DNA of 64,000 nt from Cyanidioschyzon merolae (GCA_000091205.1 AP006498.2); one strand, 5' to 3'; positions 2,120 through 59,571 are shown, counted from the stretch's first letter. The notes: a model not told the origin generated them from the sequence alone. Numbers and translations are program-made.

Positions 2120-3052
2120 ATGTTCATCTCGTATAGTGTCAGCAGCTTGTGGCGAGTGAGCGATTATGACACGAGCTTCGTGTCATCAACGGGTCCACGC
2201 GCCCCAAATAACGAACGGCAACGGCGGGTAAGCACACGTCCATTTGCGCAGAACTTGCGTCTGGCAGAGGAACCAGTCTGGGATCGCAGACAACTTATGA
2301 AGCAAGCTGGAGTTCTGCTTGAGTTGCTGGCGATAAGCTCTGTTGCATCAGCCAAGGCAGCACAAGTTGCAGACAATCCGCCGACACAGCACACCAGCTG
2401 CCGAGCGGGGACTCCGTTCGCGAAAGTGACCGATAAAGCTCGTTTCGTAGTGCAAATAGGTACAACTAGTGGAAGCGAGCGGCTACCTCTTGTTATAGGG
2501 CTCTTCGGCACCGAGGCGCCTGAAGCGGTCGAGCGTTTCAAGCAACTCGTGGAACAGCGACTGGTGCATCACGGCCGACAACTCGGCTATTCGTATACAA
2601 CGGCGTCGCGCATCATACCTAACCAAAGGATTGAACTGGGTCGTATATCGCAACTGGAGGACTTGGCAACAGCTGATGGTGTCCCACTTCGCCCGAGGAT
2701 GCTGCTCTCCCCGGGGACCCGGGATCGTAACGCACTCCGGCATCGATGTGCTGGGACTGTATCGATTCCGCATGAGCCGGGACGCGGTTTCGAGTTTTGC
2801 ATTCTACCTGTTGATGTATCCGATGAGCATGCATTTGTTCAGGAGCTCGATGCGGAAAATGTTGTCATTGGCTGCGTGATCCAGGGTATGGATACCGTGC
2901 GCCAGCTCAACGAGATTCCAGTGAGTCGACCTACCCCGCGTGACATGCTGCGGCGAGTGGGGCAGGCCCTGGGCGACGTGCGTGCTCGCCAGGATCCAAC
3001 GTGGCGACCGCTGCGTAAAGTACGCATCCTGGAATGCTCCTTAATTCCCTAA
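2120..3052 (+). CDS. divergent cyclophilin-type PPIase-like domain protein (TLP40/CYP38-like pattern)
   Basis: 310-aa ORF; LFGTEAPEAVERFKQLV resembles the cyclophilin ELYG..AP.TVENF segment; GTVSIPHEPGRGFEFCIL resembles G.LSMAN.GPNTNGSQFFIT; VIGCVIQGMDTVRQLNEI resembles VFGRVVEGMDVV; N-terminal extension could be a targeting peptide. Confidence 0.45.
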   Translation: MFISYSVSSLWRVSDYDTSFVSSTGPRAPNNERQRRVSTRPFAQNLRLAEEPVWDRRQLMKQAGVLLELLAISSVASAKAAQVADNPPTQHTSCRAGTPFAKVTDKARFVVQIGTTSGSERLPLVIGLFGTEAPEAVERFKQLVEQRLVHHGRQLGYSYTTASRIIPNQRIELGRISQLEDLATADGVPLRPRMLLSPGTRDRNALRHRCAGTVSIPHEPGRGFEFCILPVDVSDEHAFVQELDAENVVIGCVIQGMDTVRQLNEIPVSRPTPRDMLRRVGQALGDVRARQDPTWRPLRKVRILECSLIP

Positions 3053-4328
3053 GGGATTTGAAGAGATATGGTGATCTCGATTCACAGTGAGCGCGTCCAT
3101 GCATCCTGCTCAGCAAGGCACAGAGGATCTGGGCATTCGAATCTGCGCCAAATGATGGGAGAACAGCTCTTTCGGAGGGAGGACGTCCATGCTCGTGTAT
3201 GCACAGCTTCGATATCTGCTTCCATTTCCCTGAGGAGGGAGGATGCAAATTCAGGAACTTGTCCAAGACGCCGGGTGACGGCTTTATATGAGCGACGGCG
3301 TCGTTGTTTTTGCCTGTGTACATGTTGCGTGGATTCTTCTCCTCTAACGAGTAACAGAGCCTTGGTTGTTCGTCTTCCAAGGTGTTTGTTTAGCAAGCGA
3401 TACGTCTCGCAGAGGAACAGGAACGCAGTCTATATACAAATATGGGGTCAGTGGGAGTCTTCGTGAACCAGCAAGTCGTAAACATGAGACTCGTTTCATG
3501 CTACATGAAACAACGAGTCGATAGTTCGACACAGGGGAAACTTGGATCGTGCATAATTCACTGGAGAACTGAGTGTCAGGAACCGTCCTTTTTCAAGAAC
3601 CGTCTAGGGCAAGGCGGGAAGCGCAAGGGTGCGCTGCGTCCAAGGGCCTCGCGCAACTGGCGGCTGTCCCCCAGTGCCGACGAGGCAGCGATATGCCCCG
3701 ATACCATCTCAAAGTATATTGGAGCTCTGAAAACTCTTGCATATGAAATAGCTCGGGATTCAATCTCTCAACGCCAAGGCGGTATCCAGGTCAACAATGC
3801 ACCCGTCATCCGATCCGTTTATTGCCGGCAAACTGAAACGCGTCGCTTCGCCTGCGAAACGCTACCGCGAAGCTCGCTATGCACTGTCGGCATCCGACGA
3901 GTGACCGACGCGTCAAAAAACGCTCTTCGGGTGACACCTCCTTTTCATGGAACCAACCTGTCCGAGAGAAAGTTTCGGAGTACGGTCGCTTACGGCCTTG
4001 TCCTGGACCGCAGTAGACCCGGTGAAGCGGCACAAGTCAACAGCGCGTACTCCTTGCGCTCATCAGTTCTTGCACTATGTATACTTGGACACAGTGAGCG
4101 CACCCGCTCCGCCAGGGAACCGCAACGAACGTCCATACCTATTTTATGCAGCAGCTGGAAGCCTATGCGTGGGCTCGAACTGAGCCCACACACATCAGCT
4201 GTGAATCCCTCTGGCAGTCGGTCCGCTGACGCTCGTAAGCGGAGACCGCTCCACAGGCACTCAACAGGCCTGATGTCGGCAAATCACAGCCTACCTTTAA
4301 CCGTGCAAGTGACTAGCGCCACGGAACA

Positions 4329-11595: not shown

Positions 11596-11930
11596 CAGAC
11601 AATCAGAATGTCCGTCTCGTTCTATAAACTACTGGTATGAACGTCTCTGCGAGTCGCTTGTCGTCAGGATGTCCGTCTCTTTCCATAAAATACAGGTATG
11701 GCAAGTTTCTACTTGCCGCTTGTCGTCAGAATGTCCGTCTCTTTCCATAAAATACAGGTATGGCAAGTTTCTACTTGCCGCTTGTCGTCAGAATGTCCGT
11801 CTCTTTCCATAAAATACAGGTATGGCAAGTTTCTACTTGCCGCTTGTCGTCAGAATGTCCGTCTCTTTCCATAAAATACAGGTATGGCAAGTTTCTACTT
11901 GCCGCTTGTCGTCAGAATGTCCGTTTATTC
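11596..11930. repeat. tandem minisatellite, 5.3 copies of a 61-62-bp unit GTCCGTCTCTTTCCATAAAATACAGGTATGGCAAGTTTCTACTTGCCGCTTGTCGTCAGAAT; first unit diverged in its middle
   Basis: units start at 11610, 11671, 11733, 11795, 11857 with partial copies at both flanks; copies 2-5 identical; each unit contains a perfect 7-bp stem / 4-nt loop hairpin GGCAAGT-TTCT-ACTTGCC. Confidence 0.9.
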
Positions 11931-13690: not shown

Positions 13691-13829
13691 CGCGAAGCCC
13701 TGCAGCGCTGTGGGCCACGCCGCACAGAGCGCCTATTGGTGTGCGCCGCTCGCTCAAATCCTGCTCCGCCGATCGCTCTATCAACGTCTGGCGTACAAGC
13801 AACGTCCCAAGTTGATCCATCCATCTATG

Positions 13830-15300
13830 TATTTATACTCAGCAAAACGGATATCTTTCTAGGACCATAGAGTGTGTATAGAAACCTACTGACAGACGCC
13901 CCGTAGCATCAATGGACCCATGGGCTGCAATCAGCTTAAGTTTATACCTGCACACTTCGTGCATCAAAGGCTGCGTCGCAAAATTCACTCGTGTCTGCTC
14001 CGCGAGTCTCGTCTTCAGCACCGCTTTCCGTCTGACATTGATGGCGGTGTAAAAGTCCCAGTTCACGAATTCCATGCGTTTATCGCCTCTGGTGAAACGG
14101 ACGTATGCAAGGATGCCTCGAAATCATACCCTCCGTGCCACTAGTCTCGTGGATCTCTCCTCTTCTTCCTCACCTACTCTTCTTCGCACGACGGTCGGCG
14201 AGAAAAGGATCTTTTTCGTTATTTTTCCGGGAGCCGGCGACACCGGGCCTCCAGTATCCTCGATTTCCATGTACATAACTTTTCCTTGATTCTTTTATTT
14301 CTTCAAATAAATGCAGTTCTTTGTGCCCGTAGATAAGGAACTTCCCGGAGGGAGTGGGACTTGCGGAAGAGAGCCGAAACGTGTCCCGGTGTGTCATTGT
14401 GTGCCGAACGCTTTCGTGATTCGCCCAGTGGAGTGATCGTCACGTTTCACGATACAAAACGCTCCTTCGATGTGGTTGAGTCAAGTCGCGTACTGAGGAG
14501 TGAAAGGCGGCTCTACTCCGATAGAATCGGCAATAGCTCGAACACATGGGTAATGGTGAAATGCAACGTCGTCGAATGGACGGACGTCACCAGACTTCAG
14601 CGAGAAGTCTTCAATGATTCGACGAACTGTGTTCTGTTGTATATGCCTTCCCCAGGAGCGAAACGGAGACCTCCAAATGAGTCCACATCAGCAAGAACAG
14701 ATGATGTCCTCGTTCTGTTGGGGATCGATCGGACATACGACGATCCGCCCCTCCGCGAATACCCATGTACCATCCGACAGTTTCATCCGAATCAAGTCTC
14801 ATTGACTCAAAAAACAAACCAAAGTCCCTGTGCTTCACATCGATCGTGGCGTTCCAGGAACGCTGTAGGTGCAAATTCTGTGGAAGATGGCGGTGATTGA
14901 ACTAGGACTCTTTTTTGCGATTAGATTCCAGTGATCTCAGGATCCGCACCATCAAGCTGTTGAGAATCAGAGATGCCGGTTGCGGCTACTATGGTCGCTT
15001 TTGTTGCTCGTAAGTAGTTCATGTTGAAACCATTGACCGAAAGCAGTATCTGATATTACCATTTTTTGGCGCGGAGCGCAGATACTTGTTTCACTCAGTA
15101 TTCCTCAAGCATTTGAGTACTGTGTCAAGACTCACCTGAAGGAAGAATGTTGTCCTTCTTGCACGATTCAGTAAAGAATATATCCTGCAAACAAGTCGTC
15201 GACGATGCATACGGCATGTAGCATCATGATGTCGATCTACTGCTACACACTGAGAAGGAGCATTCGATGACACAGACACCAGAGATGGAACGTAACTGAG
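13830..15300 (-). mobile_element. decayed Fanzor (TnpB-like) element copy with multiple frameshifts/stops; 3' tail (right end) at about 13830
   Basis: minus-strand peptides MEFVNWDFYTAINVRRKAVLKTRLAEQTRVNFATQPLM (RuvC-III region and conserved tail), KSYVHGNRGYW (compare [11 protein letters not shown] of the intact copy) and ETVGWYMGIRGG (RuvC-I region); nucleotide homology of about 70-80% with 44160-45600 along about 1.4 kb. Confidence 0.6.
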
Positions 15301-18139: not shown

Positions 18140-18280
18140 GCTGGAATGCGCACCTAATCGGAGAACGCTGGCCCAAGTAAACGTTTTGTCAATGAAAAAA
18201 AAGCTGGAATGCGCACCTAATCGGAGAACGCTGGCCCAAGTAAACGTTTTGTCAATGAAAAAAAAAGCTGGAATGCGCAG
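18140..18280. repeat. direct tandem duplication, 2.2 copies of a 63-64-bp unit GCTGGAATGCGCACCTAATCGGAGAACGCTGGCCCAAGTAAACGTTTTGTCAATGAAAAAAAA
   Basis: unit starts at 18140, 18203, 18267 (third truncated); about 150-300 bp upstream of the ACBP start codon. Confidence 0.85.
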
Positions 18281-19133
18281 GCGCTCTGCATTCGCCAAAT
18301 GCGATCGTGCGGTGCCTGCTTCCGCTGCTGCTTCTCGCGCATTCGGGCCCTGGGCAGTGCCTCGTACATTCGTCGATACTGTACCACACGAGTCGATCCG
18401 GCTGCATCAGAGAGCAGCAGCTTTAGCGGGATACGAGTTTTGGTCGAAGGTAGGTCGTTTAGATTCAAGGAGCTCATGATGTGGAGTTTTGAAGTGAATA
18501 GCGCCCGCGACATCACCCGAGTCGATGCAATCTGCTTTCGCTGATGCGGGAGACGGAGTATTTCCGATCACAAAACGTTTACGTTGACCATGTATCCCAG
18601 ATTGCGGAGTGGTTACTGGTTTTCGGGAAAGCGTTCATTATAACGCAACCTACCTTCAAGTTCTATGGCCTGTTCTCAGATATTCTGGTCGTTTTGTTCG
18701 TTCTATTATGCGCCGAGTTCCTGTCTTACTGCACCCGCCGTGGCGCTTATGCCGTTGAGGCAGATGCTTCACGGAGCTGAATAGCATTGCCATATCACTA
18801 GCGGCTTCGGTTCGAGGCATGATTCATTCGACATGGAGTCGGGCTATATGATTATCCTGGGAGCCTGCAAGCTGCGCAAACAGGCCGACAGTCTGCGACA
18901 GCGTGAAGCGATAAGCTGGGAGTCCATTGCGACCAGGGCGACGCCCAGATGTAGCGTTCCAGTCCCAGTTCCAGAATGAACTGCATTGCGGGCGAGTTGC
19001 TTGGATCTCCCTACAGCTTTAGCTACTGAGGGGTGAATGAAGCACGAGCCTAGGGGACATTCTTGGACATATCAAGGATCCGTACGAGCAGGAATTTCGA
19101 GAGGCCATCAGAAACCGTTTCGCGTCCCACTCC

Positions 19134-21017
19134 ATGAGTATTAAAAAGGCTTCTTCAGAACTAATGCATATGGTGAAGGAGATTTATCGCGACATGACTG
19201 ACATCATAACAGTGGAGGTTCCGGAAGAATTTTGGAACAGGAACTTTATTCGTCACCTGATGCCTGGCACATGGGAAACGTCAAAGAGAGATGAACTCGT
19301 GCGTGCGTTCCACGAGGGTCGCGCCGAATTCCGCTTCAAGGGTACTCGATACAGGGGCGATAGGGATATTTACGACTATGGGGCTATGAAGTATCTCACG
19401 AACCTGAAGAACCATTTGACAACCAACCTCGAACGTTTCATAATAAGAGCCGTATTTGCGCTCTGCCCGGGCATCTCTCGCAAAGGGATATGGGCGATTA
19501 TCAATGACATCACGAACGATCGCAAGCATGAAGATGGGGTCGAATTCGTCGACAAGAAGGAGTCAAACGAGAGCACGAATGAAGCTTCTGTGATCCGTGC
19601 GGTTGTACAAGAGCACCGTGCAGTCGTGGGGCTGGCGAATCCGCCAGAAAAGATATCAGAGTTGAAAAAAGATAAGGAAAGATACGATCGCCTCGTCCTG
19701 CGCTATTTCCTGTTTTTGGACCGAGAACTCGAACGCAAGGCGGAGATGAAACTGAGTGAGGAAAGCAATGAAGAGTGGGAGAGACAGAAGGCTTTCCTAG
19801 TGGGTAAGCGCTTCAATGGCGTTCTGTTGTGCAACATAAAGTCACATTTCGTGAGTATCGACTCCGGAGTCCTCTAAGGCATCATGAAGGAGATCTGTCC
19901 GGAGTTCGATGTCAGCAGGGAGGAATTCACCGGCGAAACCCGTCCGACGTACTGGAAGAGTATCTTCGATTTCAAACGTCTCAAAGTGAGCAGGCAAAAG
20001 TTGTTCACTGGGATAATCGAAACCGATGGAGTAGCCATGTCTGTAAACTATCGGCTGTTGAAGAAAGATCGTCCAGTTCCGCCCTCGGCTTCGCCAGTGA
20101 CGAAGGATGAAGAAAAGGAGGAGGCCGGTCCTGCGACACAGGATGTGCAGGATAACGACCTTGTCGTTGGCGCGGCGAAGGATGAAGATGAGGAGGAGGC
20201 GGGTCCTGCGACGCACAAAGTGCAAGATAACGACTTTGCCGTTGGCGCGGACCCCGGAAACACAAATATCATCACCATGGCAGTACCCAAGCGTGTGGAA
20301 GATGGCGCTGACGGCAACTTACGTCAGAAAGACATGCGTTTGTTGAGATTCTCGAGAGCGAGACACTATCGAGAATCGGGAATCATGAATGCGAGGAAGA
20401 AAATCGAGACTTGGAATGCTGGAATAAAGGACCACTTGGAAGCTATGAGCGAGGTGACGAGCCGAGGAGCGGGCTTTCAAGCTTTCCGGAAATTTATGAA
20501 AGTTCGCGTTGCTCACTGGGATGCGCTGTGGGAAGAATATACAAAGCCTCGGTGGGCTCGTCTGCGTATGAATCTATACTGTGGGAAGCAGCGGGCGTTC
20601 GCGAACTTTTTCAATCAGTTGAGCGCCCTGAAGGAGGATGAAAGTCAGAGGCTCGTCGTAGCATACGGAGCAGGGCGCTGGAAGACCCAAAAAGGGTGTA
20701 CGCCAGCTCCAACTACAAGAACGTACAAGGAGTGTGCACGGCGTTTCGTTACGATACCTGTAGATGAGTTTCGAACATCGTATACACACCACGAGCTGGG
20801 TTGTACACTTCAGAGAGTGGAGATGGAAAAGTGCCAGAGGAGCCCTGAGGAAATCGCAAAGTACGCACCGCTGACGGAGAAGCAAATGGAAAGGATGGCG
20901 AAAGGTCGACGACTACTTGCATTAGTAAGTACAACCAATGATAGCAAGAAACGTATGGAGTTCGTGAACCGAAACTTTAACGCCGCTATCAATATAAGGA
21001 GATGTGTGGCGCTGTAG
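19134..21017 (+). CDS. Fanzor-like RuvC nuclease (TnpB homolog); two track ORFs (19134..19877 and 19884..21017) are in the same frame and separated only by one TAA
   Basis: Ruv[19 protein letters not shown] (GxDPG with catalytic Asp), Cys/His cluster [20 protein letters not shown], Ruv[22 protein letters not shown] at the C-terminus (TnpB/Cas12 RDxNAAxNI class); total about 625-660 aa; in-frame extension upstream to 19041. Confidence 0.7.
20118..20264 (+). repeat. internal tandem duplication (2 x about 72 bp) within the Fanzor ORF immediately N-terminal to and including RuvC-I
   Basis: [24 protein letters not shown] / [24 protein letters not shown]; DNA units gaggaggccggtcctgcgacacaggatgtgcaggataacgaccttgtcgttggcgcgg... 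and gaggaggaggcgggtcctgcgacgcacaaagtgcaagataacgactttgccgttggcgcgg... Confidence 0.75.
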
Positions 21018-21326
21018 AAAAGACCCTCCAGAGTTGAGAGAATTTCGTGGGACAACCTCTCAAAGTGGAACTATATGAGAAAAAGTTGAGAGAAGTAGTA
21101 GGTGGCCGGTCCAAAAAAGGGGAGGCGTCTGCACGTCAGTTGGCGACTTCGTGTCTAGGGCGCATTCGCCGCCACTACTGTACACCGCTGGCGACTGCTT
21201 TCGACTTTTGAAAGGCGTTCGCTGTCGCTGCCATGTGCTTCCGCAAAACCGCCTCCTCTGAACGGCCTCGACATCCGCTTTCGCAATAAAAGGCTCCGCG
21301 GGGTTTCCAATTGCTAAAACACGAGC

Positions 21327-22514: not shown

Positions 22515-22895
22515 CATATTGTGAGTAAACCAGAAAATGTTCCACGGATACTGGGGGTAGATTCATACCCACCAATAGAAACATCCGAGCATTTATGGAC
22601 TGGCCGCCTGCTTTCGGCATCAGCTTCTCCTTATAAAAGCATCAGAGGCTGCATCATGATTTTAGATCGCCTCAGGTCTTCAAGTCTGTTCTTCAGTGCC
22701 GCAAATCGTCTGATATCTATGCTCGCGTTACAGTCTCGTTTCACAAACTCTAGGCGTTTATTGCCACTGGTTGAACTCATGATTGCAAGCATTGCTAGCA
22801 CTGGTGCCGTCAACCACTCTACAGTTTCGTCTGTCGCTCATCTTCTCCTTTTCCCATTTCTTCGTTATTTGCTCTTCTTCGCTCCATGTTCGGCG
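22515..22895 (-). mobile_element. Fanzor 3'-terminal fragment A (C-terminal about 110 codons with frameshift plus conserved tail), inverted relative to fragment B
   Basis: minus-strand peptide AMLAIMSSTSGNKRLEFVKRDCNASIDIRRFAALKNRLEDLRRSKIMMQPLMLL (RDxNAxxNIRR); tail ...GGAACATTTTCTGGTTTACTCACAATA ends about 22515. Confidence 0.65.
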
Positions 22896-23245
22896 AGAAG
22901 AGCTATTTGCCCGACGACACAATGATGAGCCTGTCGTGGCACTGAGGTCGCGAGTTCTAGCAATCCTTGCATATCTGCGTTCAACCAGAGGCAATAAACG
23001 CATGAATTCAGTGAACCGAGGCGTCGACGCCAGCATCAATATCAGACGAGTTGCAGTGCTAAAGACGAGCCCCCAGGAGCTGACGCGAGCCAACGCTGTC
23101 CGGCAACCTCTGATACTCCAGGTATTCCGGGAGAAACGGAAGCCGATAGCATTCGACCGCTCCATAAATGCCACGAGACGTCTCCAAGTGGATATACCAT
23201 GCATCCCCATGATTGGGGAATGTTTTTCGTTTTATCGTTATTGCC
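22895..23245 (+). mobile_element. Fanzor 3'-terminal fragment B, forms a palindrome with fragment A
   Basis: peptide RSRVLAILAYLRSTRGNKRMNSVNRGVDASINIRRVAVLKTSPQELTRANAVRQPLILQ; conserved tail to about 23245; about 70-75% nucleotide identity to the reverse complement of fragment A. Confidence 0.65.
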
Positions 23246-23372
23246 CGCGGCGGCTTCAGAGGCGTTGTCGCTCCGCAGGGTTTCCAGCCAAATAGCTTCA
23301 ACGCACTACGCTGGCACGTTTTCGGCACTACCGCCACCAGCTTGTCTGTGTGTTGGTGTATTTATCTGATCC

Positions 23373-41946: not shown

Positions 41947-43560
41947 TTACGCTGTGCTCTGGGCGGCGCCAAGCGCCATGGCTAAGAGCTGCAAAAGCAC
42001 CTCTGCAACGATGAGAATAATGATGATCCACTCTAATCGATGCTCGGTTCGAACGTGAACTTCATCACGGAAAAGCATAAACAGATCCTTGAGGATTTCG
42101 AGCCGTTGGTTCAGGAGTTGACCCCTTTTTTCGGTATCCAACCAGCGAGCTGTTCGCTCATAGAGCGGTTCGACCTCTTCATTCTCCCAAAACCAATCCG
42201 GTGTTCCTAGCAAATCTGTCTGGAGATTAAAGTAGCTTCTGTACAAGTGTACCTCGCCGCTCATGCGCATGACATCGCGAGCACCTAGCCGAAGTTCGCC
42301 GAAACGCACCAGGTCCAGTGGCACATTGCCACAGCGCTCAATCAGAAGATCGACACTGTTCTCGAAGGAGCCCAGCTTGCAAGACTGGGCCAGTGCGTGC
42401 GAGATACCCGCTTGGACCTGAACCAACTCTTCGTCGCTGAGGTCGGCCTCCTCTAGTTGCGTCCATTCGTTTTCCGCTTCAGCGTTTGGATCTAAAATCG
42501 CCGCTGGAGGTGCTGCGATTCGCATGCCAACGAGCTGAGAGCGCTCGACCAACGCCCCCGGGAGCATGATGTTGTCGTTCTTGATTCGGGCCTTATCTGC
42601 CTCGTAACTATAAGTGTAGGTGAAGAATTCTTTCTCCATTTCCGCAGGTGATAACTGACCGTTTTCAAACGCTTGGAGCCAGTCTAAAATGCCCCATTCG
42701 CCAGCTTCGGATAATCCCCAACACACGAGGGTACCATACGAGAAGAAAAAGATAGCAGCGCCAGCGACAACATCTTCCACTTCTTGGTTATCGTCAAGCG
42801 CAAAGCTCGGGTCCAGCGCCTCCTCTGCGTCCATCGTTCTCCACGACGGGTCCATGGTGCGATTCATGCGCTGCCTCGCGAGACCTGCTCGGTTCTGCTG
42901 ATCGTTTGGCGGGGATGCTGTTGTTGGCAACATCTCGGTGTGTTCGTCACCGGATCTATCGTTACCACAAGGGAGCCTGCTCCCTCGAGCGTCTTCCCCG
43001 GATCGGAGAAGTTCTCGAATAGCGCCAATACGGCGTCGACTTGGGCGCCTCTGGAGCAGAAGCAGGTCTCGCGATAGACGCCGTACCGTCAAGTTGGCTT
43101 TCGAAGTTATCTGCTGCAGCGCTGCGTACAGCGCCCGCAAGTCATACGTTGTGCACGTGCAGTATGTGGATAACCGACCAACAAAGCCAAGTGCTGCTTT
43201 CTCGCGCAGAGGTTCCTCCCGCTCGAGACGTGCACGATGTCGGAGGCCGGTTTTGCGAGGCAGCGGCATCGTCGGCGTCGGCGCCGCCCCAGACGGGTTC
43301 CCGACACCACCGCCAGCAGCGCTCGGTGCTACTAGCCCGGAAACATGCGCTGGACCTGTGGTTCCAGCGCCCAGTGCAGCCGGTTGAGAGAGGTCTAACT
43401 TGATCTCATTGGGTGTTGGCAGCGTCCCTGCGGCTGGTGCACCAGAAGCACCAGCCTGGAACGAGGTTTGGCTCGGCGGTAACCGCGTCTCAGGTGTGCC
43501 ACTGCCGATCGCTGAGGCAAACTGTTTCAGAAGCGCCGTTCGCTCACTTGGCGCCGACAT
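41947..43560 (-). CDS. DUF155 / RMD1 (required for meiotic nuclear division 1, YagE)-family protein with long disordered N-terminal region
   Basis: C-terminal 280 aa (FFSYGTLVCWGLSEAGE ... YTYSYEADKARIKNDNIMLP ... ISHALAQSCKLGSFENSVDLLIERC ... LYRSYFNLQTDLLGTPDWFWENEE ... RLEILKDLFMLFRDEVHVRTEHRLEWIIIILIVAEVL) fit the DUF155 pattern including C-terminal TM helix. Confidence 0.65.
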   Translation of the reverse strand: MSAPSERTALLKQFASAIGSGTPETRLPPSQTSFQAGASGAPAAGTLPTPNEIKLDLSQPAALGAGTTGPAHVSGLVAPSAAGGGVGNPSGAAPTPTMPLPRKTGLRHRARLEREEPLREKAALGFVGRLSTYCTCTTYDLRALYAALQQITSKANLTVRRLSRDLLLLQRRPSRRRIGAIRELLRSGEDARGSRLPCGNDRSGDEHTEMLPTTASPPNDQQNRAGLARQRMNRTMDPSWRTMDAEEALDPSFALDDNQEVEDVVAGAAIFFFSYGTLVCWGLSEAGEWGILDWLQAFENGQLSPAEMEKEFFTYTYSYEADKARIKNDNIMLPGALVERSQLVGMRIAAPPAAILDPNAEAENEWTQLEEADLSDEELVQVQAGISHALAQSCKLGSFENSVDLLIERCGNVPLDLVRFGELRLGARDVMRMSGEVHLYRSYFNLQTDLLGTPDWFWENEEVEPLYERTARWLDTEKRGQLLNQRLEILKDLFMLFRDEVHVRTEHRLEWIIIILIVAEVLLQLLAMALGAAQSTA

Positions 43561-44159: not shown

Positions 44160-45600
44160 GCTGGTCGACGATTATTGTTCGTGAAACAAAAAATGTCCCA
44201 CGACTATGAAGGGTAAAATGAATACCCGAGTGCAGATGCCTCCCAGCCGTTTCTTGACCAGCCGCCTGCTAACGACATCAGCTTCTCGTTATGATAGCAT
44301 CGGAAGCCGCCGGACGAGGGTCGCTCGCGTGAGCTCCTCGGGTCTCGTCGTCAGCACCTGGCATTGTCCGATATTGATAGCAGCATTCAAGTCTCGGTTC
44401 GCGAACTCCCCGCGTGCATTGGCGCTGGCTGAAGTCATCAATGCAAGGATTCCTCGAACTCGTGTCCTCGGTGCCATTTGGTGCTCGGCCAGCGCTCCGT
44501 ACCATTCTGTCGCCGAAGCGCTGCGCGGCCTTCTCTCCATCTCGACGTTCTGAAGTGACCACCCCAGGTCATCCAATAGATTATGTATTTCTTGCATATA
44601 AATGCTCTTGTTTCTGTCCTTAGGTGAGGACGTTCCCGAAGGGAGACGGATTTGCGGAAGCAAGACCAGATGTACCCTGGTGCCGCCATGTGCTTAGCGC
44701 TTTAGCGATTCAACTAGTGGAGCGATCATTACGTTTCATGGTAATAACACTCCTTCGATGGGGTTCAGCTGCAGGTTGTACTGATGCATGAAAACCAGCT
44801 CTTCCCCGATAGAATCAGCAAATGCTCGGACGCGAGGGATGTGCTCAAATGCCTCGTGGTACAATAGAAGCAAGTCGCGAAACGTTACACGAAAAGTCTT
44901 TTATTTATCGACAAAGTGGTTGCTGCTGATATATGAGCGTTTTCTACGTGCGAAACTAAGACAGCCAAATGAATTCTCTATAGCTAATACAGCTGATGTC
45001 GTCGTTCTCTTCGGGATCGTTGATATAGTCAGCCGGCTCCCTGATCCGCGAATACCCACAAACGTTCCGACAGTTTCATTCGAAGCAATTCTCATCAACT
45101 AGAGAAAAAAACCAACGTCCCTTGGCTTCGTATCGATTCCGACGTTCCAGAAACGCTGTAGGTGCAATTTCTGTGGAAGGTGGCCGTGCGTGATCTACGA
45201 CTCTTTTTTGCGACTGAATCCTAGTGTTTACGGGACCGCACGAACGAGCTGTTGCGAAACAGAGAAGCCTGTGGCGGTTACGATCGCCGCTTTTGCTATT
45301 TGCGTAAGATGCTCAACCGGTCCTTTTCTACCATTGACCACAAGCACGCTTTAAGAATACAATTCTCTGCCCAAGGCGCGTATACTTGTTTCGTTCTGTG
45401 TTCCTCAACCATCTGAGTACTGTGGTATAACTGTGCTTATGGAGGAATGCAGACCTCTTCGCACTGCTCAGTAACGAATGCATCCTACAGGCAAGTCACC
45501 CACGATCTGTTCAAAACATAACATCATGACTTCGATCACCTGCGATAACCTGCAAAAAGAGCATTCGGTAACACGCAGGCGTGGTTGAGTAAAATTGAGT
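44160..45600 (-). mobile_element. decayed Fanzor (TnpB-like) element copy 2; RuvC-I Asp replaced; conserved 3' tail ends about 44180
   Basis: minus-strand peptides LQNVEMERRPRSASATEWYGALAEHQMAPRTRVRGILALMTSASANARGEFANRDLNAAINIGQC (RuvC-III), ETVGTFVGIRGSGSRLTISTIPKR (RuvC-I with D to I); tail GAGAAGCTGATG..GGCGGCTGGTCAAGAAACGG..GGGACATTTTTTGTTTCACGAACAATAATC. Confidence 0.65.
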
Positions 45601-46377
45601 TTCCAGAATATGACTAGTGCTGAGCATGCGATAACCGCCCCAGTGCATCCCTGAACCTTCAGCGGCATCTGCAAGGTGGTGTTTCTCTTTGGATGTCAGA
45701 TCTGACTCAGCGCCGGTCAAATGTGCAGCATTGATATGGACGCCGTGTCGAGTCCCCGCAGCTGGATGGATGAACTGAATGATCTCATGACGAGAACTTG
45801 CCATGTCTTTCAAAATTCGACGAGAGGACACATTTTTGCGACTTTGGGTCCTGTCACGCTCCTGGGCACTTCTACGAGCCGTCATCGTCACTGACATTGC
45901 ACCGTAAACATCACAGAGACATACGCTGTGCTTGTGGCGCTGGTCAATTCCACCGATGGTACGGGGGCCGAAGACCAAAGCTCCTCGCTTGCAGCGGATC
46001 TTTGGGAAATCGGTAGGACGATGAGGGTCTCTGTGTTTTCGCGATAATATGATGAACGCTGCGATATCAAAAAGCAGCGCACTGTAGTCGTCAACCAGTT
46101 GCCCGGGAAAGTCGTTTCTGGTGTATGCATGCGGCTTCCCAGGCTCGCTGTATCGCTGATTGATCCAGACGAGTGGCTTGTTCCCGGCAGCGACGAAGAG
46201 AGGCACAGCATCGATCTCAGCTGCGTAGTCTTCGAACGCTTTTGAGCGATGAAAAACGATACTGTCTACGATCAGGACAGAATAATTTACGAAGCAGTAC
46301 CCACGACCTGCTTCGACGGAATGATGGCATGTTGAAGGAGCTTGGCCATTCAGTGATTTGCAGGCGACCACACACAA
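45511..46377 (-). CDS. endonuclease/exonuclease/phosphatase (EEP, ExoIII/APE-like fold) family protein
   Basis: 288-aa ORF; C-terminal motif order and spacing typical of EEP: GVHINAAH (GDxN-like) about 85 aa from the end, WGGYRMLSTSHIL (RxDYxL-like) about 45 aa from the end, AGDRSHDVMF (SDHxP-like) at the end; CKSLNGQ near N-terminus; N-terminal motifs weak. Confidence 0.4.
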   Translation of the reverse strand: MCVVACKSLNGQAPSTCHHSVEAGRGYCFVNYSVLIVDSIVFHRSKAFEDYAAEIDAVPLFVAAGNKPLVWINQRYSEPGKPHAYTRNDFPGQLVDDYSALLFDIAAFIILSRKHRDPHRPTDFPKIRCKRGALVFGPRTIGGIDQRHKHSVCLCDVYGAMSVTMTARRSAQERDRTQSRKNVSSRRILKDMASSRHEIIQFIHPAAGTRHGVHINAAHLTGAESDLTSKEKHHLADAAEGSGMHWGGYRMLSTSHILETQFYSTTPACYRMLFLQVIAGDRSHDVMF

Positions 46378-46833: not shown

Positions 46834-47850
46834 CTATACGTCTTCACCCTGCGAAACTGGTGCCCCTCGAGCTCTCTTCGCACCAACTGTTCGTTTCCTC
46901 TTCGGTTCAGGAGCTTCGGAGCCTTCGAGTCCTTGCTCTGTAGTCGAGGCATCAGCACATAACCAGTTCTCCTTGTCTTGCGTGATTCGATGTTGGACGC
47001 GCTGGACGGCGTCACACATGCACTCTAGCTGCTGCTGATACGCACGCCAATCCTCAGCTGACATTTGTCGCCTTTCTGCAAATCCTGGCAGCACGATATG
47101 ACCTAAACTTTCAAGTTGAACCCAGTGACGCGTTGTTGATGGCGAAGTTGCGGCTTGCAACTGGAGCCACTCTCCGGCAAGGAGCTGGTGCAGTCGTTGC
47201 TGCTGGACCTCAGGAAGAGATTGCAGCAGAGTATGAACGTCTTGCCACTGCTGCTCACGAGACAAAAGACGTAGTTCGAACTCTGCTTCACGAACACGCG
47301 TTTCAGGGAGGGCGAATCGTTCGCGATTTTCGCGCAGGCGTGCAACGACCACTTCTCGAGAGGGATTCGGACCCTCGTTGATTACTAAACCCATCTTCGT
47401 CTTCGCCCCGGCCTTGATTTTTTCCCTGTTCACTAAGAAAACCTCAGCCGGATCAATCTGAAGCCCAGTAAACTCTGCGAGCGATTGCTGTCCCAGGAGT
47501 TTTTGCGTTTGCAGGTTCAGTTGGGAGATCGTCTTGCCGACAAGGTACCCGCTCTGTACTATCTGGGACCAGCGCCCAACACCGTGCACCATCAAACACA
47601 GACGCAAGCGGTGAACCTCGTCTCCAGTCCATCCAGGCGACAAACTAAAGTTCCAAAGAGACAAAGCGTGAGGTGCAGCGGGCCCTGGCTTCATGTCTCC
47701 CTGCAGGAGCACAAGCCCAGCGTCTCCAAAGCGTTGACCGGAATTTTGGCGCCAGCATGCGTCGACTGTTGCTGGCGTTTTGCGCGCCAAACTCGGGCGT
47801 TGAACTTTTGTTGTGCGCTTGAGAGCCTCGCCGGCATCTTCGTGACGCAT
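46834..47850 (-). CDS. Myb/SANT-domain protein with coiled-coil region
   Basis: WTGDEVHRLRLCLMVHGVGRWSQIVQSGYLVGKTISQLNLQTQKLL fits the Myb/SANT repeat (W..EE..L....G.G.W..I......GRT..QC); Q/L/E-rich C-terminal half. Confidence 0.4.
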   Translation of the reverse strand: MRHEDAGEALKRTTKVQRPSLARKTPATVDACWRQNSGQRFGDAGLVLLQGDMKPGPAAPHALSLWNFSLSPGWTGDEVHRLRLCLMVHGVGRWSQIVQSGYLVGKTISQLNLQTQKLLGQQSLAEFTGLQIDPAEVFLVNREKIKAGAKTKMGLVINEGPNPSREVVVARLRENRERFALPETRVREAEFELRLLSREQQWQDVHTLLQSLPEVQQQRLHQLLAGEWLQLQAATSPSTTRHWVQLESLGHIVLPGFAERRQMSAEDWRAYQQQLECMCDAVQRVQHRITQDKENWLCADASTTEQGLEGSEAPEPKRKRTVGAKRARGAPVSQGEDV

Positions 47851-51107: not shown

Positions 51108-51305
51108 CATCGATAGATGCTGGCACTCGGGTGCAACAACAACAACAACAGCAGCGATCTATGCGCAAAGCAATATCCTCGTGTTACGGTAGCCGGGCAC
51201 TGTAGTCATCGATAGATGCTCGCACTAGGGTGCATCAACAACAACAACAGCAGCGATCTATGCGCAAAGCAATATCCTCGTGTTACGGTAACCGGGCACT
51301 GTGTT
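51108..51305. repeat. direct tandem duplication, 2 x 99 bp (about 93% identity) containing a (CAA)5-(CAG)2 tract
   Basis: CATCGATAGATGCTGGCACTCGGGTGCAACAACAACAACAACAGCAGCGATCTATGCGCAAAGCAATATCCTCGTGTTACGGTAGCCGGGCACTGTAGT at 51108 and near-identical copy at 51207. Confidence 0.85.
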
Positions 51306-53371: not shown

Positions 53372-55088
53372 ATGGAGGAATATGATGATGTGAATGACCG
53401 ATCACAATTGATATATAAATGCATTGGCGGGTGATGCGCGTTGGCGACATCGCGGCAGCCGAGGCAGCTGGCACCGACCGCGTTGTGACGCAGGCGTTCG
53501 TGATCGCGCTGCGCAGCGGTCTAGTGCGGGCGACTTCCTGAAGTCGTGCTTCCGGTCTCCCGGGTACGACACTGCACCCATCGGGCCGGTTTGCTGTGAG
53601 AGCGCAGCTCTGGACACGGTGGACCGTGGAAATCATCCGAGAAATGGGTACGTTTGAAACCTAAGTGACTGAGAGTGCTCGCAATCGCACGAAATCCCTG
53701 TTAGATCCATCGATCATGTGGGGAGGAATTCCCTCAGTCATTCGAGACTGGGCGGCATCCGCGGTGCGTTCCACCAGCGCAGCGCTATCGGGCTTTCGCA
53801 CGAGTCGACGCGCTCAGCTTCTGCATAACCGGTTTTTCTTGGAGTTGAATCACTTGAACGAACTGGGATTCCCCGGGTATGCCATTTGTGTTGGAAACCT
53901 GTGAAGAGACCGGGTTGCCTTTGAGGCATCTCAACGTTCCGCAGGTCGCATACCAGTGCATCCATCGGGATCTGCGCCTAGACTGATCTAGCGCTTTCCC
54001 TCGTATGCTGAGTCTGTATCCGAAACTGGCTGTGGCGCCAGCATTTTTCTTTTTTGTTTCACAGAAAGCTAACTTAGAGCAGATATGCCTGCGATGACGC
54101 TATCTCATACCCGCACCCAGAAAAGCGTCCGCCACGTATCCAAGCACCGCTTCCCATATTTGCCCGCGAAGATACACATCATTTCCTCCGTTCCACTCTG
54201 TGGCGAGTCTGTCGTGATCCCCATCAATGACACCTATCGCGCCGGTGTGCATGCAGCAAGGATACGAGACGCGTTTACCGTAACACTACGAGCGTCTGCT
54301 CGAGATCTCCGCTCCATAACGAATCATGATAATGATGATATATGTCAGTCAAACGAAAGCGTTTCACGACCGTTGCTAACGAATATATCCCCAAACGCGC
54401 AAACGGCTCCCAGCCTTTTTCGCCCGATCGACTGGTATCGTTTTCAGATTTTATCCCTGCAGAGTTCGAGCCTGAAAGACCGCCCTATAAAGTTCGCTCG
54501 CCTCAGCTCCCCAGGTCTGATCATTAGCACCACACATCGTCTGATGCTGTGTGAAGTCTTGGTTCGGGAACTCCATGCGTATATTCCCGCATGTTGAACT
54601 CATGTTTGCAAGAATTGCTCGAACACGTACCCTCTGTGTCACAAGAATCTTGTCATCGCCCCGTGGGGCAAATACCTTCTATCGTCTATCTCTCCATATT
54701 TTTTTATTCTGATTCTTCGTTCGAAAGTCGGCGAGATGAGGGTTTTTTTTCGTTTTTCCGGCAGCTGGTGATCACGTCCCCGCAGGATCCTCGCCTTTTC
54801 CGTCCATACATTTCCCTCGGATTTTTATTTCTTCGAATCAGCGCACGTCATACATACTTCCTATGAAAAGTAAAAAAGCATTTGATGACACTTACCTGGT
54901 TATGGAACACCCTTTAGTTGAGGCATTACCATCATGGTACACTTGTCAGGAAACAATGCCCCTGTCTCATGCAAATGCAGACGCCTATTGCGCGTCGAAT
55001 CTGCGTCTGCGACTGCTGCGTCGATTGCGCAGTTTTCGAACACGAGCGCTCGCCCCCAGTGCCTCTATTCGAGCGTTAAACTCGGGTT

Positions 55089-56864
55089 ATGACCGAAACA
55101 AACCATAATAGTTTAGGGACGGGAGGGAGACCAGACTCGCCTCCACCCTACGTACCACAGCACATATACTCGCGAGAAGACTTTTTGCTGGTGCGTACCG
55201 CGGCGGCTGACACGGCGGTGAGTCTGGCGCCGTCGTTGCCGGTGGCAAGTCCTCGGGCGAAGGAGCGCTGGACGCTGCGCCTCGTGCACAACGACTGGGG
55301 TGCTGCAGCTGCTTTGCCCTCCTCAGGGTCACACCTTGAACGTACAGGACGTGCAGCGCGCCCGGAGGCTAGTGGACGGCGCCAACGACGCAGTGCACCA
55401 GGTGCTCCTGGAGCAGCGACCTCCGAGCACGCTGTGGTACCGGTTCAGCTGCCTGAGCTTGTCCCTGTGAGTGAAGACTGGCTGAAGCCGCATCCTTTGT
55501 TAGACCTTACTCAAGACATTCCCTTAGAGGAGACCGGCAAGGAAACCAAAGATGGCGACGAGTTCGTGGACGGCTTCCTCGAGCACGCCCGCAAGGGGGA
55601 AGACCTCCTCGTGCTGGACTTTGAAGCACAAGATCAGTCGCAAGGGTCTAGTCTTTTGCCGAGTGTTCAACCGGGCAAGCCACGCAGCACCATCGGCGCT
55701 CGTTCGGCACCCGATGATGCCGAGCTGATCGCACCGCTTCATGATATGCGACTGAGCGGAACAGTGAGCGGATTCTCCGTGGATACAGCTGAGCCGCCCA
55801 AGCATCATGCCCAGTTTGCTGATTCGGAGACACCTGGTGGAAAGACAGGTCCGTGGGCGGGCTCACAGCGACCTGTTGCACAGAGCTGGCATGCCGCACC
55901 AAGCATCGGCACTGCGACCAATGTCTCGAACCAGCGGGAGACGTTCGCTGGAAAACCTCCAGCGGAGACGACTCCTGCCAACCCCCATCCGGCATCTTTT
56001 GGGGATATTGGTATGCTTGAGAGTCGACTTGGTCGGTGGACGCATCGACAGGCCGATGTTGCACCAACTGGTCCCGGCGACCGGAGCGCTCAGGAGTACA
56101 TCCCTGACCGGGGCGCACCAGTTGCAGGCGGCGCCACAAGACGGGAGCAAGACCCCCGTGCAGAGACGCTCTCGCCAAGTGTCCTGGCGTTCTTTAACCA
56201 GGTACGGGCACAGGCTGCAGTTTCGAATCCACCGTCTCGTGTGATGGAGACGACGTCTGATCAGCAGTACGCAGCAGTGACAACGCATCCGAGACCGGAG
56301 TCTGGAACGCGTTTCCCCGCAGATGCAGACCCCAGTCTCTACGCATTATTCGGTAGATATCCTGTGCCGCCACTGAGTCAGCTGGGTCCACCGCCGGGAT
56401 TCGGGTTTCCACCGCACCTGGAACAAAGCGGTGTTATGGACATGCAGTCAAATTTTGAACAGCAACGGCAACGACCGCAGCACGTTGCACGAGGACTGCA
56501 TATCCCGCAGCCGCAGCCGCAGCCGCAACAGCCGCCACAGTCGCAACTCCCCACGCTCAATGTTCCGTATCAAGAAGCGTTCCCAGTGCGAGGCGGGCCC
56601 CCGTCGGGATCCACGTTGGGTGCTTTAGTCCCAAACTCGGAACTAGATCCATCGCGAACAGGTCATATTCCGCAACCAGTCTTCATCCAAACGAGTTCGT
56701 GGATATCAGGGCCCGCTCAGAACGGTCCATTCGGTCCACTGGATACGTTCCCGAATGGTCCTGTTCCGTTTGACGCGCAAGCACCCTATGCACAAAGCAC
56801 CGACCCGGCCAATCGACATTTTCGTGATCAGAAATGGCCACCGAATCTGTCTTATCAGCCATAG
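55089..56864 (+). CDS. hypothetical Pro/Gln/Ala-rich low-complexity protein
   Basis: 591-aa ORF; PQPQPQQPPQSQLP, Pro-rich throughout, no recognisable domain; codon-level periodicity consistent with coding. Confidence 0.35.
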   Translation: MTETNHNSLGTGGRPDSPPPYVPQHIYSREDFLLVRTAAADTAVSLAPSLPVASPRAKERWTLRLVHNDWGAAAALPSSGSHLERTGRAARPEASGRRQRRSAPGAPGAATSEHAVVPVQLPELVPVSEDWLKPHPLLDLTQDIPLEETGKETKDGDEFVDGFLEHARKGEDLLVLDFEAQDQSQGSSLLPSVQPGKPRSTIGARSAPDDAELIAPLHDMRLSGTVSGFSVDTAEPPKHHAQFADSETPGGKTGPWAGSQRPVAQSWHAAPSIGTATNVSNQRETFAGKPPAETTPANPHPASFGDIGMLESRLGRWTHRQADVAPTGPGDRSAQEYIPDRGAPVAGGATRREQDPRAETLSPSVLAFFNQVRAQAAVSNPPSRVMETTSDQQYAAVTTHPRPESGTRFPADADPSLYALFGRYPVPPLSQLGPPPGFGFPPHLEQSGVMDMQSNFEQQRQRPQHVARGLHIPQPQPQPQQPPQSQLPTLNVPYQEAFPVRGGPPSGSTLGALVPNSELDPSRTGHIPQPVFIQTSSWISGPAQNGPFGPLDTFPNGPVPFDAQAPYAQSTDPANRHFRDQKWPPNLSYQP

Positions 56865-57644
56865 CGCGATGATTGATTTGGATTACGAAGGAACCTTGCT
56901 TCCAGCGAACTGCACCCGCGCTTTCTAGGTTCCTTGTAAAAAATCTCTGGGACTACTCCTCCGAGCGCTATCATGTTTGAATCATACGAGAAGCGGGCGC
57001 TAGCTGGTTGTTGCGCTCATTCCGGAGCGCGAGGCGCACCCGATCACTACGACCTGTTGATAGGGGGTACAATCCGCGAATACCCCAGCGGGTACCGTGT
57101 CATCTATCATGGTAGGATTCCAAGCGGGACGCTGAACGAATCGCTGTGTTCCTGCCTTTCGACTTTATTCCGAAAGCTTTTTAGGTGATACTTAGTTTCG
57201 ACATCCGAGGAGCAGCACAAAGGGCGTGCGCGTTCATACGGACTTTCAGGCATGTAGAATGCGTTTTCATTGAGAATCCTTCGACTCCTTACCGCTGGCA
57301 TTCGTTAGGATACAGGAACCGAGATGGTTCACGGCGCCAACGACCGTGGGTTTGTCAAATAATCGATATCGTTATCCTGCTCATGCGCAGGGGTCCCCAT
57401 GCGTCTCGATCCCGTTGGTCAGGCATACTGGAATCACGCATTCTTCAAATATTCGATCGTACTGGTTCAAAGCAACTCGTGGGCACAGCTATTCATGCCT
57501 CAGGACTGACGAAGAAAACGATTCGACGACGTTTCTCGACGACTTGTTCACACGCTCGTGCAGAAAGTTCACTGAGCCTGTCACGTCTATTTATAGATTC
57601 CTTTTGAAAGACAGATCCCCCGTGACCTAATGGCCATCTAAAAA

Positions 57645-57737
57645 ACGGGGTATGCTCTCTGAGGCTGCCGTCTCTTCTGTTTTCTTGGAAAGGGCTTGGA
57701 TGCGGGTCCAAGTCACCGCTGCGATCGCTTCCAGTGG
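57645..57737 (+). repeat. copy 2 of the short dispersed conserved element (see 38755-38843)
   Basis: about 80% identity to 38755-38843; hairpin CTTGGA-TGCGGG-TCCAAG (copy 1 has TTGGA-G-TCCAA, i.e. stem preserved with a different loop). Confidence 0.5.
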
Positions 57738-59571
57738 AGCGTGCTTCAGCGTTGTGTAGCTAGGGTATGTAAAAGGATCGACATTGTTCGAATGGGTACC
57801 AAGCTCAGATTTTCCTTCCGGTACCTGCCTCGTTATGGACAATATCGTGTTCCGCAAATCCGATTGTTTTAGGGAAAACGGCATAGAGTGGATTATGGGT
57901 TATCTTGGTGACTACGAGTTATTCTCAATGGCCCGACTCGAATCGGAACATGCTCAGGGCCGTCAGGAACGAACCTGGAGTCAACATATGCGTATCTCAG
58001 CAACTCTGGGCCTCCTCTTCGATCCGAGCTGGTGCCTCGTGCTCGTACCGCCACGGCTATGCGCACTGGGCTCATCGGAGTGTGCTTTCCGCCATTCGAT
58101 CGTATTTTCGGATCGAAGAGTTCCGTAGAAGCATGAAGATCAGTGTTGAACGGGGCACAAAAAGTATGTATTGCACGGTTGGCAGTGGCGGTGCAACACC
58201 CATGCGTACCAGGCACCTCAGTAGAACAATTCAGTGCGAGCAAGAAAGATTTCCGGGGGTGTTTCGGAAACAGCTGCATAGCATCTTCAAAGAACATCGC
58301 CACTCCCGGAGAAAACGCGTTTGCTGCGAAATGCTTATCGCCTGGTCGTCCGTATTTGAGTGTCAACATGAGCAATTGGGCAAAAACGCGTAAACGAAAC
58401 ATGTCGAGATTTTTCTCCTCGTCAATTCGGAGACGTGCGCTGCTCCGTCCACGAGTTGCCCATACAAAGAAAGGTCGAAATTTTTGTACAATGCGTGATT
58501 TTATCATGCTCCTCATCAGGCAATAAGAATAGTGGAGGTTAGTCCTTAAGGCTTGGATGATTACATAGGTTATGGTACGAGCTCGTGTTCGACGGCATCG
58601 CAAACCATCTTTACGTCGTTGAGGATATGAATTCCAGGGCCAAAAGCGCCGAGGAAGCCACTCGAAAAAATGAACCGAAAAGTCTACACCTATGGGTGAG
58701 TTTGTAAACCTTTATTGCTGCATTTCGAATTCCGAGCCTGCATATCTCAAAAAGTTTCGAAAATGTCGACATGCAGGAATAGCATGCATAGGACAGTGTC
58801 GCATTTTACTCTGCATTGATCCTAGTTCGCGGTCGATGCTTTCGTACTGCACTCTCCCAGTGTAGGATACCGGCAACGAGTGGCATTGCAGCAACATGCA
58901 AACTGTTCGACACCCGACCACGTTACAGTATGCACGAGCTTCGACAGTTCCGGGAATGTGGTGTACCTTCGATCACGAAATGCGCTCGCTCTAGCGATAC
59001 AAGGTCAAAGCGCCAGTTAATGATCGACTTGTTCTCGACTTGTCTTGCCCAGCGATGCATCTCGGTGCCAAAGCGGCCCGTAATGTACATGATACTGTAG
59101 ATCAACAACCGGAGCTCCCAATGCTGCGAATCCACGTGGTCGCTCTTTTCGGAATACGGCGGCAGTCGAGCTTCCTCTCATTGCGATTTCGATCACCTCG
59201 AAGGCGCTCGCTCACGAGACACGTCATACCGGTCGGTCCTCGCGGTGCCGAGACCACGCTTTCGACAGATCGTATAACATCCCGCAAGATGCTCCGTTCG
59301 TGCGACAGATGTTATCCCGTTCACCATCTTTGCGAGCAGACTGTGCGCTACCGCTCGATCTAACGCAGTCTCGCGAGACGCTGTGTTCGTGTGACGGACG
59401 CTGTCGTGTTCGCGATCACAGCGCCGGAGCACCGCGTTTCCAAAGGCCGCATTGCAGCGTCAATGCACCTTCGTAGGCAACGATCGGTGCCCCGTAGAAG
59501 CTGTCCAACGCGCTGATGTTCTCCAGGACACCGTCAAATGCACAGACGTCCGCCCAAGCATCGTCATTTGT

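Follow-up and report, generated by a model that had tools for sequence, protein, structure and literature searches.

Probable relic of a composite DNA transposon, a mariner-type transposase gene joined to a Fanzor1 remnant, in the nuclear genome of Cyanidioschyzon merolae

The DNA considered here is a stretch of 64,000 nucleotides (nt) from the red alga Cyanidioschyzon merolae (the window, to whose whole length all coordinates refer unless stated otherwise), and the subject of this analysis is a repeat unit on its minus strand, copy B, in which a reading made from the sequence alone had seen a decayed Fanzor gene whose RuvC-I catalytic Asp had been replaced. Copy B is very probably a composite DNA transposon of the cut-and-paste type, now a non-functional relic, in the C. 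merolae 10D nuclear genome. Its upstream part is, to judge from profile comparisons, the relic of an IS630/Tc1-mariner-type DDE_3 transposase gene; its downstream part is the C-terminal stub of a Fanzor1 gene of the CMe-1 family, in the same orientation (Table 1). The reference for this family is CMe-1A, described as a 3169-bp consensus of approximately 150 copies, each about 80% identical to it (Bao and Jurka 2013, Mob DNA 4:12, PMC3627910); the consensus sequence was taken from Additional file 2 of that paper. The 5' and 3' limits of copy B were set by multi-copy alignments, in which the common 5' edge of the composite copies falls near 45605 in B, and the limits given by the sequence-only reading agree with them. 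Copy B is colinear, at 68-71% identity, with a second copy in the window, copy A (13979-15273), and with the independent metagenomic loci L004, L009, L012 and L013. The composite copies all finish at one common 3' terminus, where they diverge from CMe-1A after consensus position ~3092.

The identity of the upstream part emerged only via a database relative and a custom profile; Pfam and NCBIfam searches with the raw and stitched frames of 44560-45700 gave no match. The stitched translation of the B transposase retrieved a single database relative, P0121 (E 1.3e-16), which exceeds the Pfam DDE_3 cut-off of 28.6 with a score of 35 bits, and an exhaustive HMMER search with P0121 yielded 179 relatives, many of about 300 amino acids (aa). 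When ten of these relatives were scanned for DDE_3, nine scored 79-95 bits and one, the 228-aa P0148, only 21 bits, which is below the cut-off; several carry an N-terminal HTH_23, HTH_Tnp_Tc3_2 or HTH_33 domain. A DDE_3 profile was made from 50 independent full-length (~300-aa) transposases, none of them from the window, and hmmsearch with this profile matched copy B at 44986-45519 (profile positions 1-179, E 5.9e-13) and at 44748-45320 (profile positions 71-257, E 5.1e-12). Profile positions 1-120 align to 45160-45519, and no helix-turn-helix (HTH) model matches B itself. The pseudogene opens with ATG TTT TGA at 45519 and is interrupted by five or more in-frame stops and by one frameshift, at GYSR/RGSGS. 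Neither the D-D-E triad nor the reading frame of this transposase is intact.

It is within this pseudogene that the peptide previously taken for a RuvC-I strand lies. According to the sequence-only reading, GADPG had become GIRGSG in ETVGTFVGIRGSGSRLTISTIPKR, with loss of the catalytic Asp. The peptide exists, but it is transposase sequence: GIRGSGSRLTISTIPKRTTTSAVLAI matches the DDE_3 profile segment GYskkGkrlkvkkkkprvttvsvlaav, GIRGSGSRLTISTIPKR(TTTSAVLAI) aligns to the profile segment directly past the first catalytic Asp, and copy A has GYSRRGGSSYVRSIPNRTRTSSVLA at the homologous position. Because the independent DDE_3 profile aligns across it, GIRGSGSRLTISTIPKR can be placed in the authentic transposase frame; the out-of-frame portion is limited to ETVGTFVG, for which the correct translation is DENCFE, a stop codon and NCRNVCGY. 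The idea that the whole peptide is out of frame, which came from tblastn with P0121, was rejected, as P0121 itself derives from a frame-shifted copy. At this position the Fanzor family profile is silent (E<=10, filters off). The similarity of the peptide to the Fanzor RuvC-I 20-mer (ungapped BLOSUM62 score 21, 5/20 identities) is at chance level, since eight unrelated 20-mers from the six-frame translation of the window score at least 21 against the RuvC-I peptide. Because the peptide fits the DDE_3 profile and its similarity to Fanzor is no greater than chance, the apparent D-to-I change is an artefact of aligning unrelated proteins, a possibility that the sequence-only reading had itself allowed for.

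A full-length Fanzor gene that decayed in place, with GADPG changed to GIRGSG in RuvC-I and frameshifts between its parts, is therefore very improbable. Such a gene would account for the same-strand peptide ending in ...IPKR that precedes the RuvC-III region by about 430 nt, and the RuvC-III region is genuinely Fanzor; however, there is no Fanzor profile match upstream of 44572, the peptide fits both the DDE_3 profiles and the transposase of copy A, and its RuvC-I likeness is equalled or surpassed by the eight random 20-mers just mentioned. The spacing is also wrong, as approximately 145 codons lie between the supposed Asp (Ile, 45051-45053) and the RuvC-III Asp (44391-44393) of B, whereas D431 and D672 of CMe-1 are 241 aa apart. 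Nor are the parts separated by frameshifts, as had been supposed; from 45077 to 44289 there is a single frame throughout, broken by three stop codons.

The downstream part is where the sequence-only reading was right: the RuvC-III region is nearly in one frame and keeps the D..NAAINI motif (NRDLNAAINI). The open reading frame (ORF) 44289-44663 on the minus strand reads ...DDLGWSLQNVEMERRPRSASATEWYGALAEHQMAPRTRVRGILALMTSASANARGEFANRDLNAAINIGQC..., is open for 124 codons, and contains the peptide LQNVEMERR...NRDLNAAINIGQC. This stub peptide matches the C-terminus of the window's long Fanzor copy (tblastn E 2e-11, 45% over 74 aa) and positions 468-556 of 590 of a Fanzor family profile made from 36 long database relatives (E 2.4e-22). 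The window's long copy and these 36 relatives match the published CMe-1, and the profile also detects the published Fanzor1 proteins VCa-1 (27 bits), CVu-1 and CRe-4 (Additional file 3 of PMC3627910). In blastn of the CMe-1A consensus against the window, 44572-44341 corresponds to consensus 2737-2971 at 73%, and nhmmer carries the match on to about consensus position 3090, i.e., from CMe-1 aa 611 to ~729 of 734. Upstream of 44572, neither blastn of the consensus in copy B nor the family profile, even at E<=10 with all filters off, finds anything. Pfam, NCBIfam and PDB sequence searches for the Fanzor ORFs and family (including hmmsearch of the family alignment against all PDB) returned no meaningful match, and an AlphaFold2 model of P0026 from 69 aligned sequences (mean pLDDT, the predicted local distance difference test, 45; pTM, the predicted template modelling score, 0.27) was too poor for a fold search.

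Absent from copy B are the RuvC-I residue D431 (GADPG), the DEFRTS motif (aa 602-607) and everything N-terminal, and the deletion junction falls just past the TS motif of CMe-1. Both remaining zinc-finger Cys residues are substituted (C to W and C to R; ELGC...EKCQ became DLGW...ERRP). When compared with the Fanzor1 motif D-X(125,275)-[TS][TS]-X-X-[zinc finger]-X(5,50)-RD (Bao and Jurka 2013), copy B shows the RuvC-III RD and lacks the RuvC-I Asp, [TS][TS] and the zinc finger. A Fanzor-derived remnant is present, as had been claimed, but it is not a decayed full-length copy, and about 83% of the Fanzor gene in copy B has been deleted, not frameshifted.

Table 1. Positions in the window of copy B, its parts and the related copies
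Feature	Position	Strand	Remarks
Copy B, whole repeat unit, decayed composite transposon	44172-45605	-	DDE_3 transposase pseudogene plus Fanzor1 CMe-1 C-terminal stub
IS630/Tc1-mariner-type DDE_3 transposase pseudogene	44575-45519	-	~930 nt
Profile-matched part of the transposase pseudogene	44748-45519	-	profile positions 1-257 of 298
First catalytic Asp motif	45082-45099	-	VDENCF, retained; aligns to profile iDEtsF and to VDETSF of P0121
Peptide formerly read as RuvC-I	45006-45077	-	ETVGTFVGIRGSGSRLTISTIPKR; transposase sequence
Second catalytic Asp site	44847-44870	-	destroyed; LLLYHEAF vs LpLDNvaFHH of relatives (Asp to Tyr)
Third catalytic motif	44748-44768	-	LNPIEGV, Glu retained
Transposase C-terminal end	44573-44747	-	no stop before the Fanzor stub; by alignment to the conceptual protein of L003
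Fanzor1 CMe-1 stub, aa ~611-705	44289-44572	-	stop-free, in frame, closed by TAA
RuvC-III motif	44370-44399	-	NRDLNAAINI, Asp retained (CMe-1 D672; consensus NRDFNAAINI)
Frame-shifted continuation of the Fanzor C-terminus	44225-44296	-	YHNEKLMSLAGGWSRNGWEASALG matching LYEKKLEAVVGGRSKKTGRRLHV, past the TAA at 44289
Composite-specific 3' terminus of copy B	44172-44228	-	ends in ...CATAGTCGTGGGACATTTTTTGTTTCACGAACAATA
Copy A	13820-15273	-	DDE_3 pseudogene, CMe-1A 881-969 (Fanzor start), then 2833-2997 and composite 3' end (mini form)
CMe-1A element, pseudogene	18565-21217	+	consensus 1-492 and 1081-3169, 87-89% identical to consensus

The same arrangement of the two genes recurs at other loci. 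Copy A is 70.6% identical to B over 1000 nt, plus the tail, and the Logan contig L003 has the same layout as A and B. Scanning of JGI metagenome contigs with the transposase alignment yielded 18 loci, which collapse to seven independent ones; contigs 99.1-99.7% identical over 6-9 kb to the surroundings of A or B were dropped as representing the same place, as were other near-identical sets. Wherever the sequence of a locus continues past the transposase, a CMe-1 fragment in the same orientation is found about 50-350 nt downstream. The extent of this fragment differs: L012 has CMe-1 at full length (aa 1-734), L007 has CMe-1A consensus 871-2162, B, L009 and L013 all begin at consensus 2737 with an identical junction, and A and L004 have a "mini" form in which the first ~20-50 codons are joined to the last ~95. 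The junction in B is ...IYMQEIH/NLLDDLGWSLQNVEMER... (IYMQEIH/NLLDDLGWSLQ), where the C-terminus of the transposase continues in frame into Fanzor aa 611. It is likewise in frame in L009, and L013 is out of frame at this point.

Could the two halves have come together by accident? The two halves are indeed unrelated genes, and assembly of the locus from unrelated pieces had been named as an outcome that would overturn the sequence-only reading; however, the pieces belong to one composite transposon and not to a misassembly. The chance insertion of an unrelated mariner-type element beside a Fanzor fragment, or an assembly error, is extremely improbable, because order, strand and junctions repeat in copy A and at other independent loci, and because the window is 99.6% identical over 9 kb, across the junction, to independently assembled metagenome contigs.

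It is reasonable to picture the history of such a composite transposon as follows. The ancestral element, of perhaps ~3.5 kb, would have contained a gene for a DDE_3 transposase of ~300 aa, the CMe-1 gene ~170 nt downstream on the same strand, and its own short 3' terminus, and the DDE_3 enzyme would once have mobilised the whole. One internal deletion, which might have arisen by abortive gap repair, would have removed the stop codon of the transposase, the spacer and Fanzor codons 1-610, so that Fanzor aa 611-734 became an in-frame extension of the C-terminus of the transposase. This deletion derivative would then have spread or been duplicated to at least three loci and undergone neutral decay, and the 3' ~330 nt may have been kept in every derivative as the carrier of the right end of the transposon.

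The lesions bear on the last part of this history. The transposase is broken in all copies examined, and the Fanzor stub of B has one stop and one frameshift. The ratio of nonsynonymous to synonymous substitution rates (dN/dS) of the stub is 0.99 relative to L009 and 0.88 relative to L013, its structural siblings, and 0.59 relative to the CMe-1 consensus, a lower value that is expected if part of that divergence dates from the time of functional parent genes. Neutral decay of copy B would fit these ratios as well as the broken transposases and the out-of-frame L013. Several points nevertheless weigh against a decayed composite transposon. The dN/dS values are rough, resting on 100-120 codons near saturation (dS 0.6) that were mapped via protein similarity. 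No intact copy of either gene was found among the loci examined. Neither terminal inverted repeats (TIRs) nor TA target duplications are demonstrable in copies A and B or at the consensus ends: an inverted-repeat search at the ends of A or B gave scores of 15-16 compared with a shuffle mean of 16.7, and the multi-copy consensus ends, compared by eye with no computed alignment, share at most 14/25 ungapped positions. Because of this, it is only from the architecture that we infer transposition by the DDE_3 enzyme. In addition, a sharing of sequence between L007 and L009 could cut the number of independent loci from seven to six.

L007 2476-5731 and L009 2478-5731 are 97% identical over 3.25 kb, and this shared segment stops precisely at the transposase/Fanzor junction, past which one contig goes on into Fanzor 871-2162 and the other into 2737-3084. 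A recent segmental duplication, recombination between copies, or an assembly chimera at a repeat could each produce such a pattern. Two candidates for the missing transposon ends were also considered and rejected. The Fanzor tail does not belong to a long TIR of the element with the transposase, as no inverted copy of the tail is present at the 5' ends of A or B. The short copies have a palindrome, CTCTTCTCGCCG...GCGAAGAAGAG, at their 5' edge, but this palindrome is not a transposon-end hairpin, as it aligns to the N-terminal coding region of Fanzor (PSPEEQEK).

An in-frame junction in both B and L009, together with a stop-free stretch of 124 codons in ORF 44289-44663, might be taken to indicate that a dead Fanzor/TnpB derivative was exapted in the manner of the bacterial TldR repressors, or that a functional transposase-Fanzor fusion protein is made. 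The probability of either is very small. What is left of the Fanzor protein amounts to 17% and includes no RuvC-I, RuvC-II, WED or REC part, and B cannot be a nuclease or a dead-nuclease regulator because it has none of these and no intact frame. The transposase has at least five stops and a frameshift, L013 is out of frame at the junction, dN/dS relative to the siblings is 0.88-0.99, and the stub closes with a premature stop followed by a frameshift. With TldR and other exapted TnpB-Fanzor relatives, copy B has in common only the idea of a TnpB-family remnant that lacks a catalytic residue; those proteins are full-length, conserved, expressed and accompanied by guide RNAs, whereas B is a 120-codon stub evolving neutrally. 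On this point, the preference of the sequence-only reading for simple pseudogenization over exaptation is borne out.

The 3' tail of the decayed composite deserves separate attention. In TnpB and Fanzor systems, the omegaRNA shares sequence with the 3' end of the ORF and with the right end of the element. In every deletion derivative seen (B, A, the mini copy at 54383-54898, both arms of a palindrome at 22571-23262, L004, L009 and L013), the last ~260-350 nt of the Fanzor ORF and the 3' terminus are retained, and the sequence-only reading had proposed the tail of B as a candidate omegaRNA. This finding would be explained by a functional non-coding module, an omegaRNA scaffold plus right end, usable by Fanzor in trans, but such a module is unlikely. 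Most of the B tail corresponds, in a shifted frame, to the conserved C-terminus of the family's protein. For nine independent tails, RNAalifold found no conserved structure (only -4.05 kcal/mol, an unfavourable covariation term of +1.63, and few short helices), in a test that is weak, as it included nine decayed copies only, and Rfam and ARAGORN searches of the whole window found nothing. Moreover, the tails, at 60-67% pairwise identity, are no less diverged than the transposase part (68-71%), their retention would be accounted for equally well if a transposon end were needed, and the copies seen include no intact Fanzor to make use of such an RNA. The omegaRNA proposal is therefore not upheld for this tail.

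Copy B is an ordinary relic; elements of its kind are known, and its Fanzor family has already been described in the C. merolae genome. CMe-1A was, however, described without TIRs and with its transposable element classification unknown, and no transposase partner was mentioned for C. merolae (PMC3627910). The B stub is homologous to CMe-1 aa 611-729 and lies in the same host genome, but B lacks the 5' part of CMe-1A (1-635, shared with TE-N2_CMe) and its 3' end (consensus 3093-3169), and has instead an upstream DDE_3 transposase gene and a 3' terminus of its own. The same Fanzor gene is thus found with two sets of termini: those of CMe-1A, consisting of the TE-N2_CMe 5' part and its own 77-nt 3' end, and those of the composite, with the transposase at the 5' end and a different 3' end of ~60 nt. 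The change from one set to the other falls immediately 5' of the ATG on one side and ~20 nt short of the stop codon on the other, and therefore it appears that the CMe-1 gene moved between carriers by recombination.

PUl-1 of Pythium ultimum and PGv-1 of Phaeocystis globosa virus are Mariner elements that carry Fanzor1 (PMC3627910), and they share with the C. merolae composite the layout of a ~300-aa Mariner/DDE_3 transposase followed by Fanzor1 on the same strand, with a total length of ~3.5 kb. In BLASTP, P0121 matches the PUl-1 Mariner transposase at E 7e-4 with all three DDE residues in register, at an identity of only ~21%. PUl-1 has 24-bp TIRs, TA duplications and intact ORFs, whereas none of these is demonstrable in the C. 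merolae composite and all of its copies are pseudogenes. The composite also resembles internally deleted non-autonomous DNA transposons, which likewise have large internal deletions, shared junctions and a preserved element end; unlike the usual derivatives of this kind, the composite copies have lost the passenger gene and retained most of the transposase, and no TIRs are recognisable in them. Within this context, one may tentatively propose that CMe-1 was first the passenger of an IS630/Tc1-mariner-type element and was later recombined onto other termini, giving rise to CMe-1A, and that its last ~330 nt were kept as a cis-acting module containing the right end and possibly an omegaRNA scaffold. 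Taken as a whole, this proposal is more doubtful than not, and its parts differ: a mariner-passenger origin of CMe-1 is well supported, and an omegaRNA scaffold in the retained ~330 nt is speculative.

The copy to which B had been compared, assumed to be intact at 19884-21017, is itself a pseudogene, part of the CMe-1A element listed in Table 1. A 588-bp deletion (consensus 493-1080) has taken out the first 58 codons, including the start codon (ATG at consensus position 906), a TAA at 19875-19877 stands where the consensus has His, and there is a 75-bp tandem duplication at 20101-20250. In the RuvC-III motif (20967-20996; consensus NRDFNAAINI) Asp is replaced by Asn, and at 21015-21017 the Glu codon of the consensus has become TAG, after which the sequence is frame-shifted. 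This copy has thus lost its start, its frame and its RuvC-III Asp, and carries two stops.

Further remains of the same families are scattered through the window. The mini CMe-1 copy at 54383-54898 (minus strand) consists of consensus 819-969 joined to 2850-3088, has only the last few transposase codons upstream, and lies a short way before ORF 55089-56864. The palindrome at 22571-23262, of ~690 bp, is made up of two Fanzor tails (CMe-1A ~2840-3090 plus the composite 3' end) in head-to-head orientation; it is centred on the short inverted repeat CTCTTCTCGCCGAACATGGAGCGAAGAAGAG (22872-22902) and has arms that are only ~66% identical; it occupies the divergent intergenic region between a DUF2301 gene and a Sec7 gene, and fold-back at the small palindrome is a possible origin. 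A third, more divergent DDE_3 relic lies at 57194-57870 on the plus strand (profile positions 3-121, E 2e-7; 174-230, E 1e-4), and no Fanzor piece was detected downstream of it. The 5' end of copy B is adjoined and overlapped by an orphan 288-aa ORF at 45511-46377 (minus strand), for which a homologue search gave as its only database match its own near-identical (98%) copy. This ORF holds a motif resembling the second DDE_3 Asp (LIVDSIVFHRSKAFEDYAAEIDAVPLFV, profile E 0.004), and it may, on the strength of that motif, be the remains of yet another transposase copy and not a host gene.

The surroundings of these relics are those of a compact, intron-poor nuclear region, with genes for a sterol methyltransferase, mitochondrial L2, a Sec7 guanine nucleotide exchange factor and an RMND1-like protein. 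Copy B itself is situated between the RMND1-like gene (41947-43560) and an ORF at 46834-47850. Two host ORFs of the window are residue-for-residue identical to the C. merolae 10D proteins BAM81887.1 and BAM81879.1. Intergenic tandem repeats are also present, namely a perfect 63-bp pair at 18140-18265, a 96-nt pair at 51108-51302 with 96% identity, and an array of ~62-bp units at about 11600-11925, whose copy number differs between the window and the metagenome contigs.

The analysis removes a false lead, as the locus contains neither a Fanzor in which the RuvC-I Asp has been replaced nor a candidate for an exapted dead nuclease, and it corrects the assumption of an intact copy at 19884-21017. 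What is new is modest: CMe-1, published with its transposon class unknown, follows a mariner-type transposase gene at several independent loci. No other Fanzor1 family is known from the compact genome of this red alga, and a layout like that of PUl-1 suggests how the CMe-1 gene once moved.

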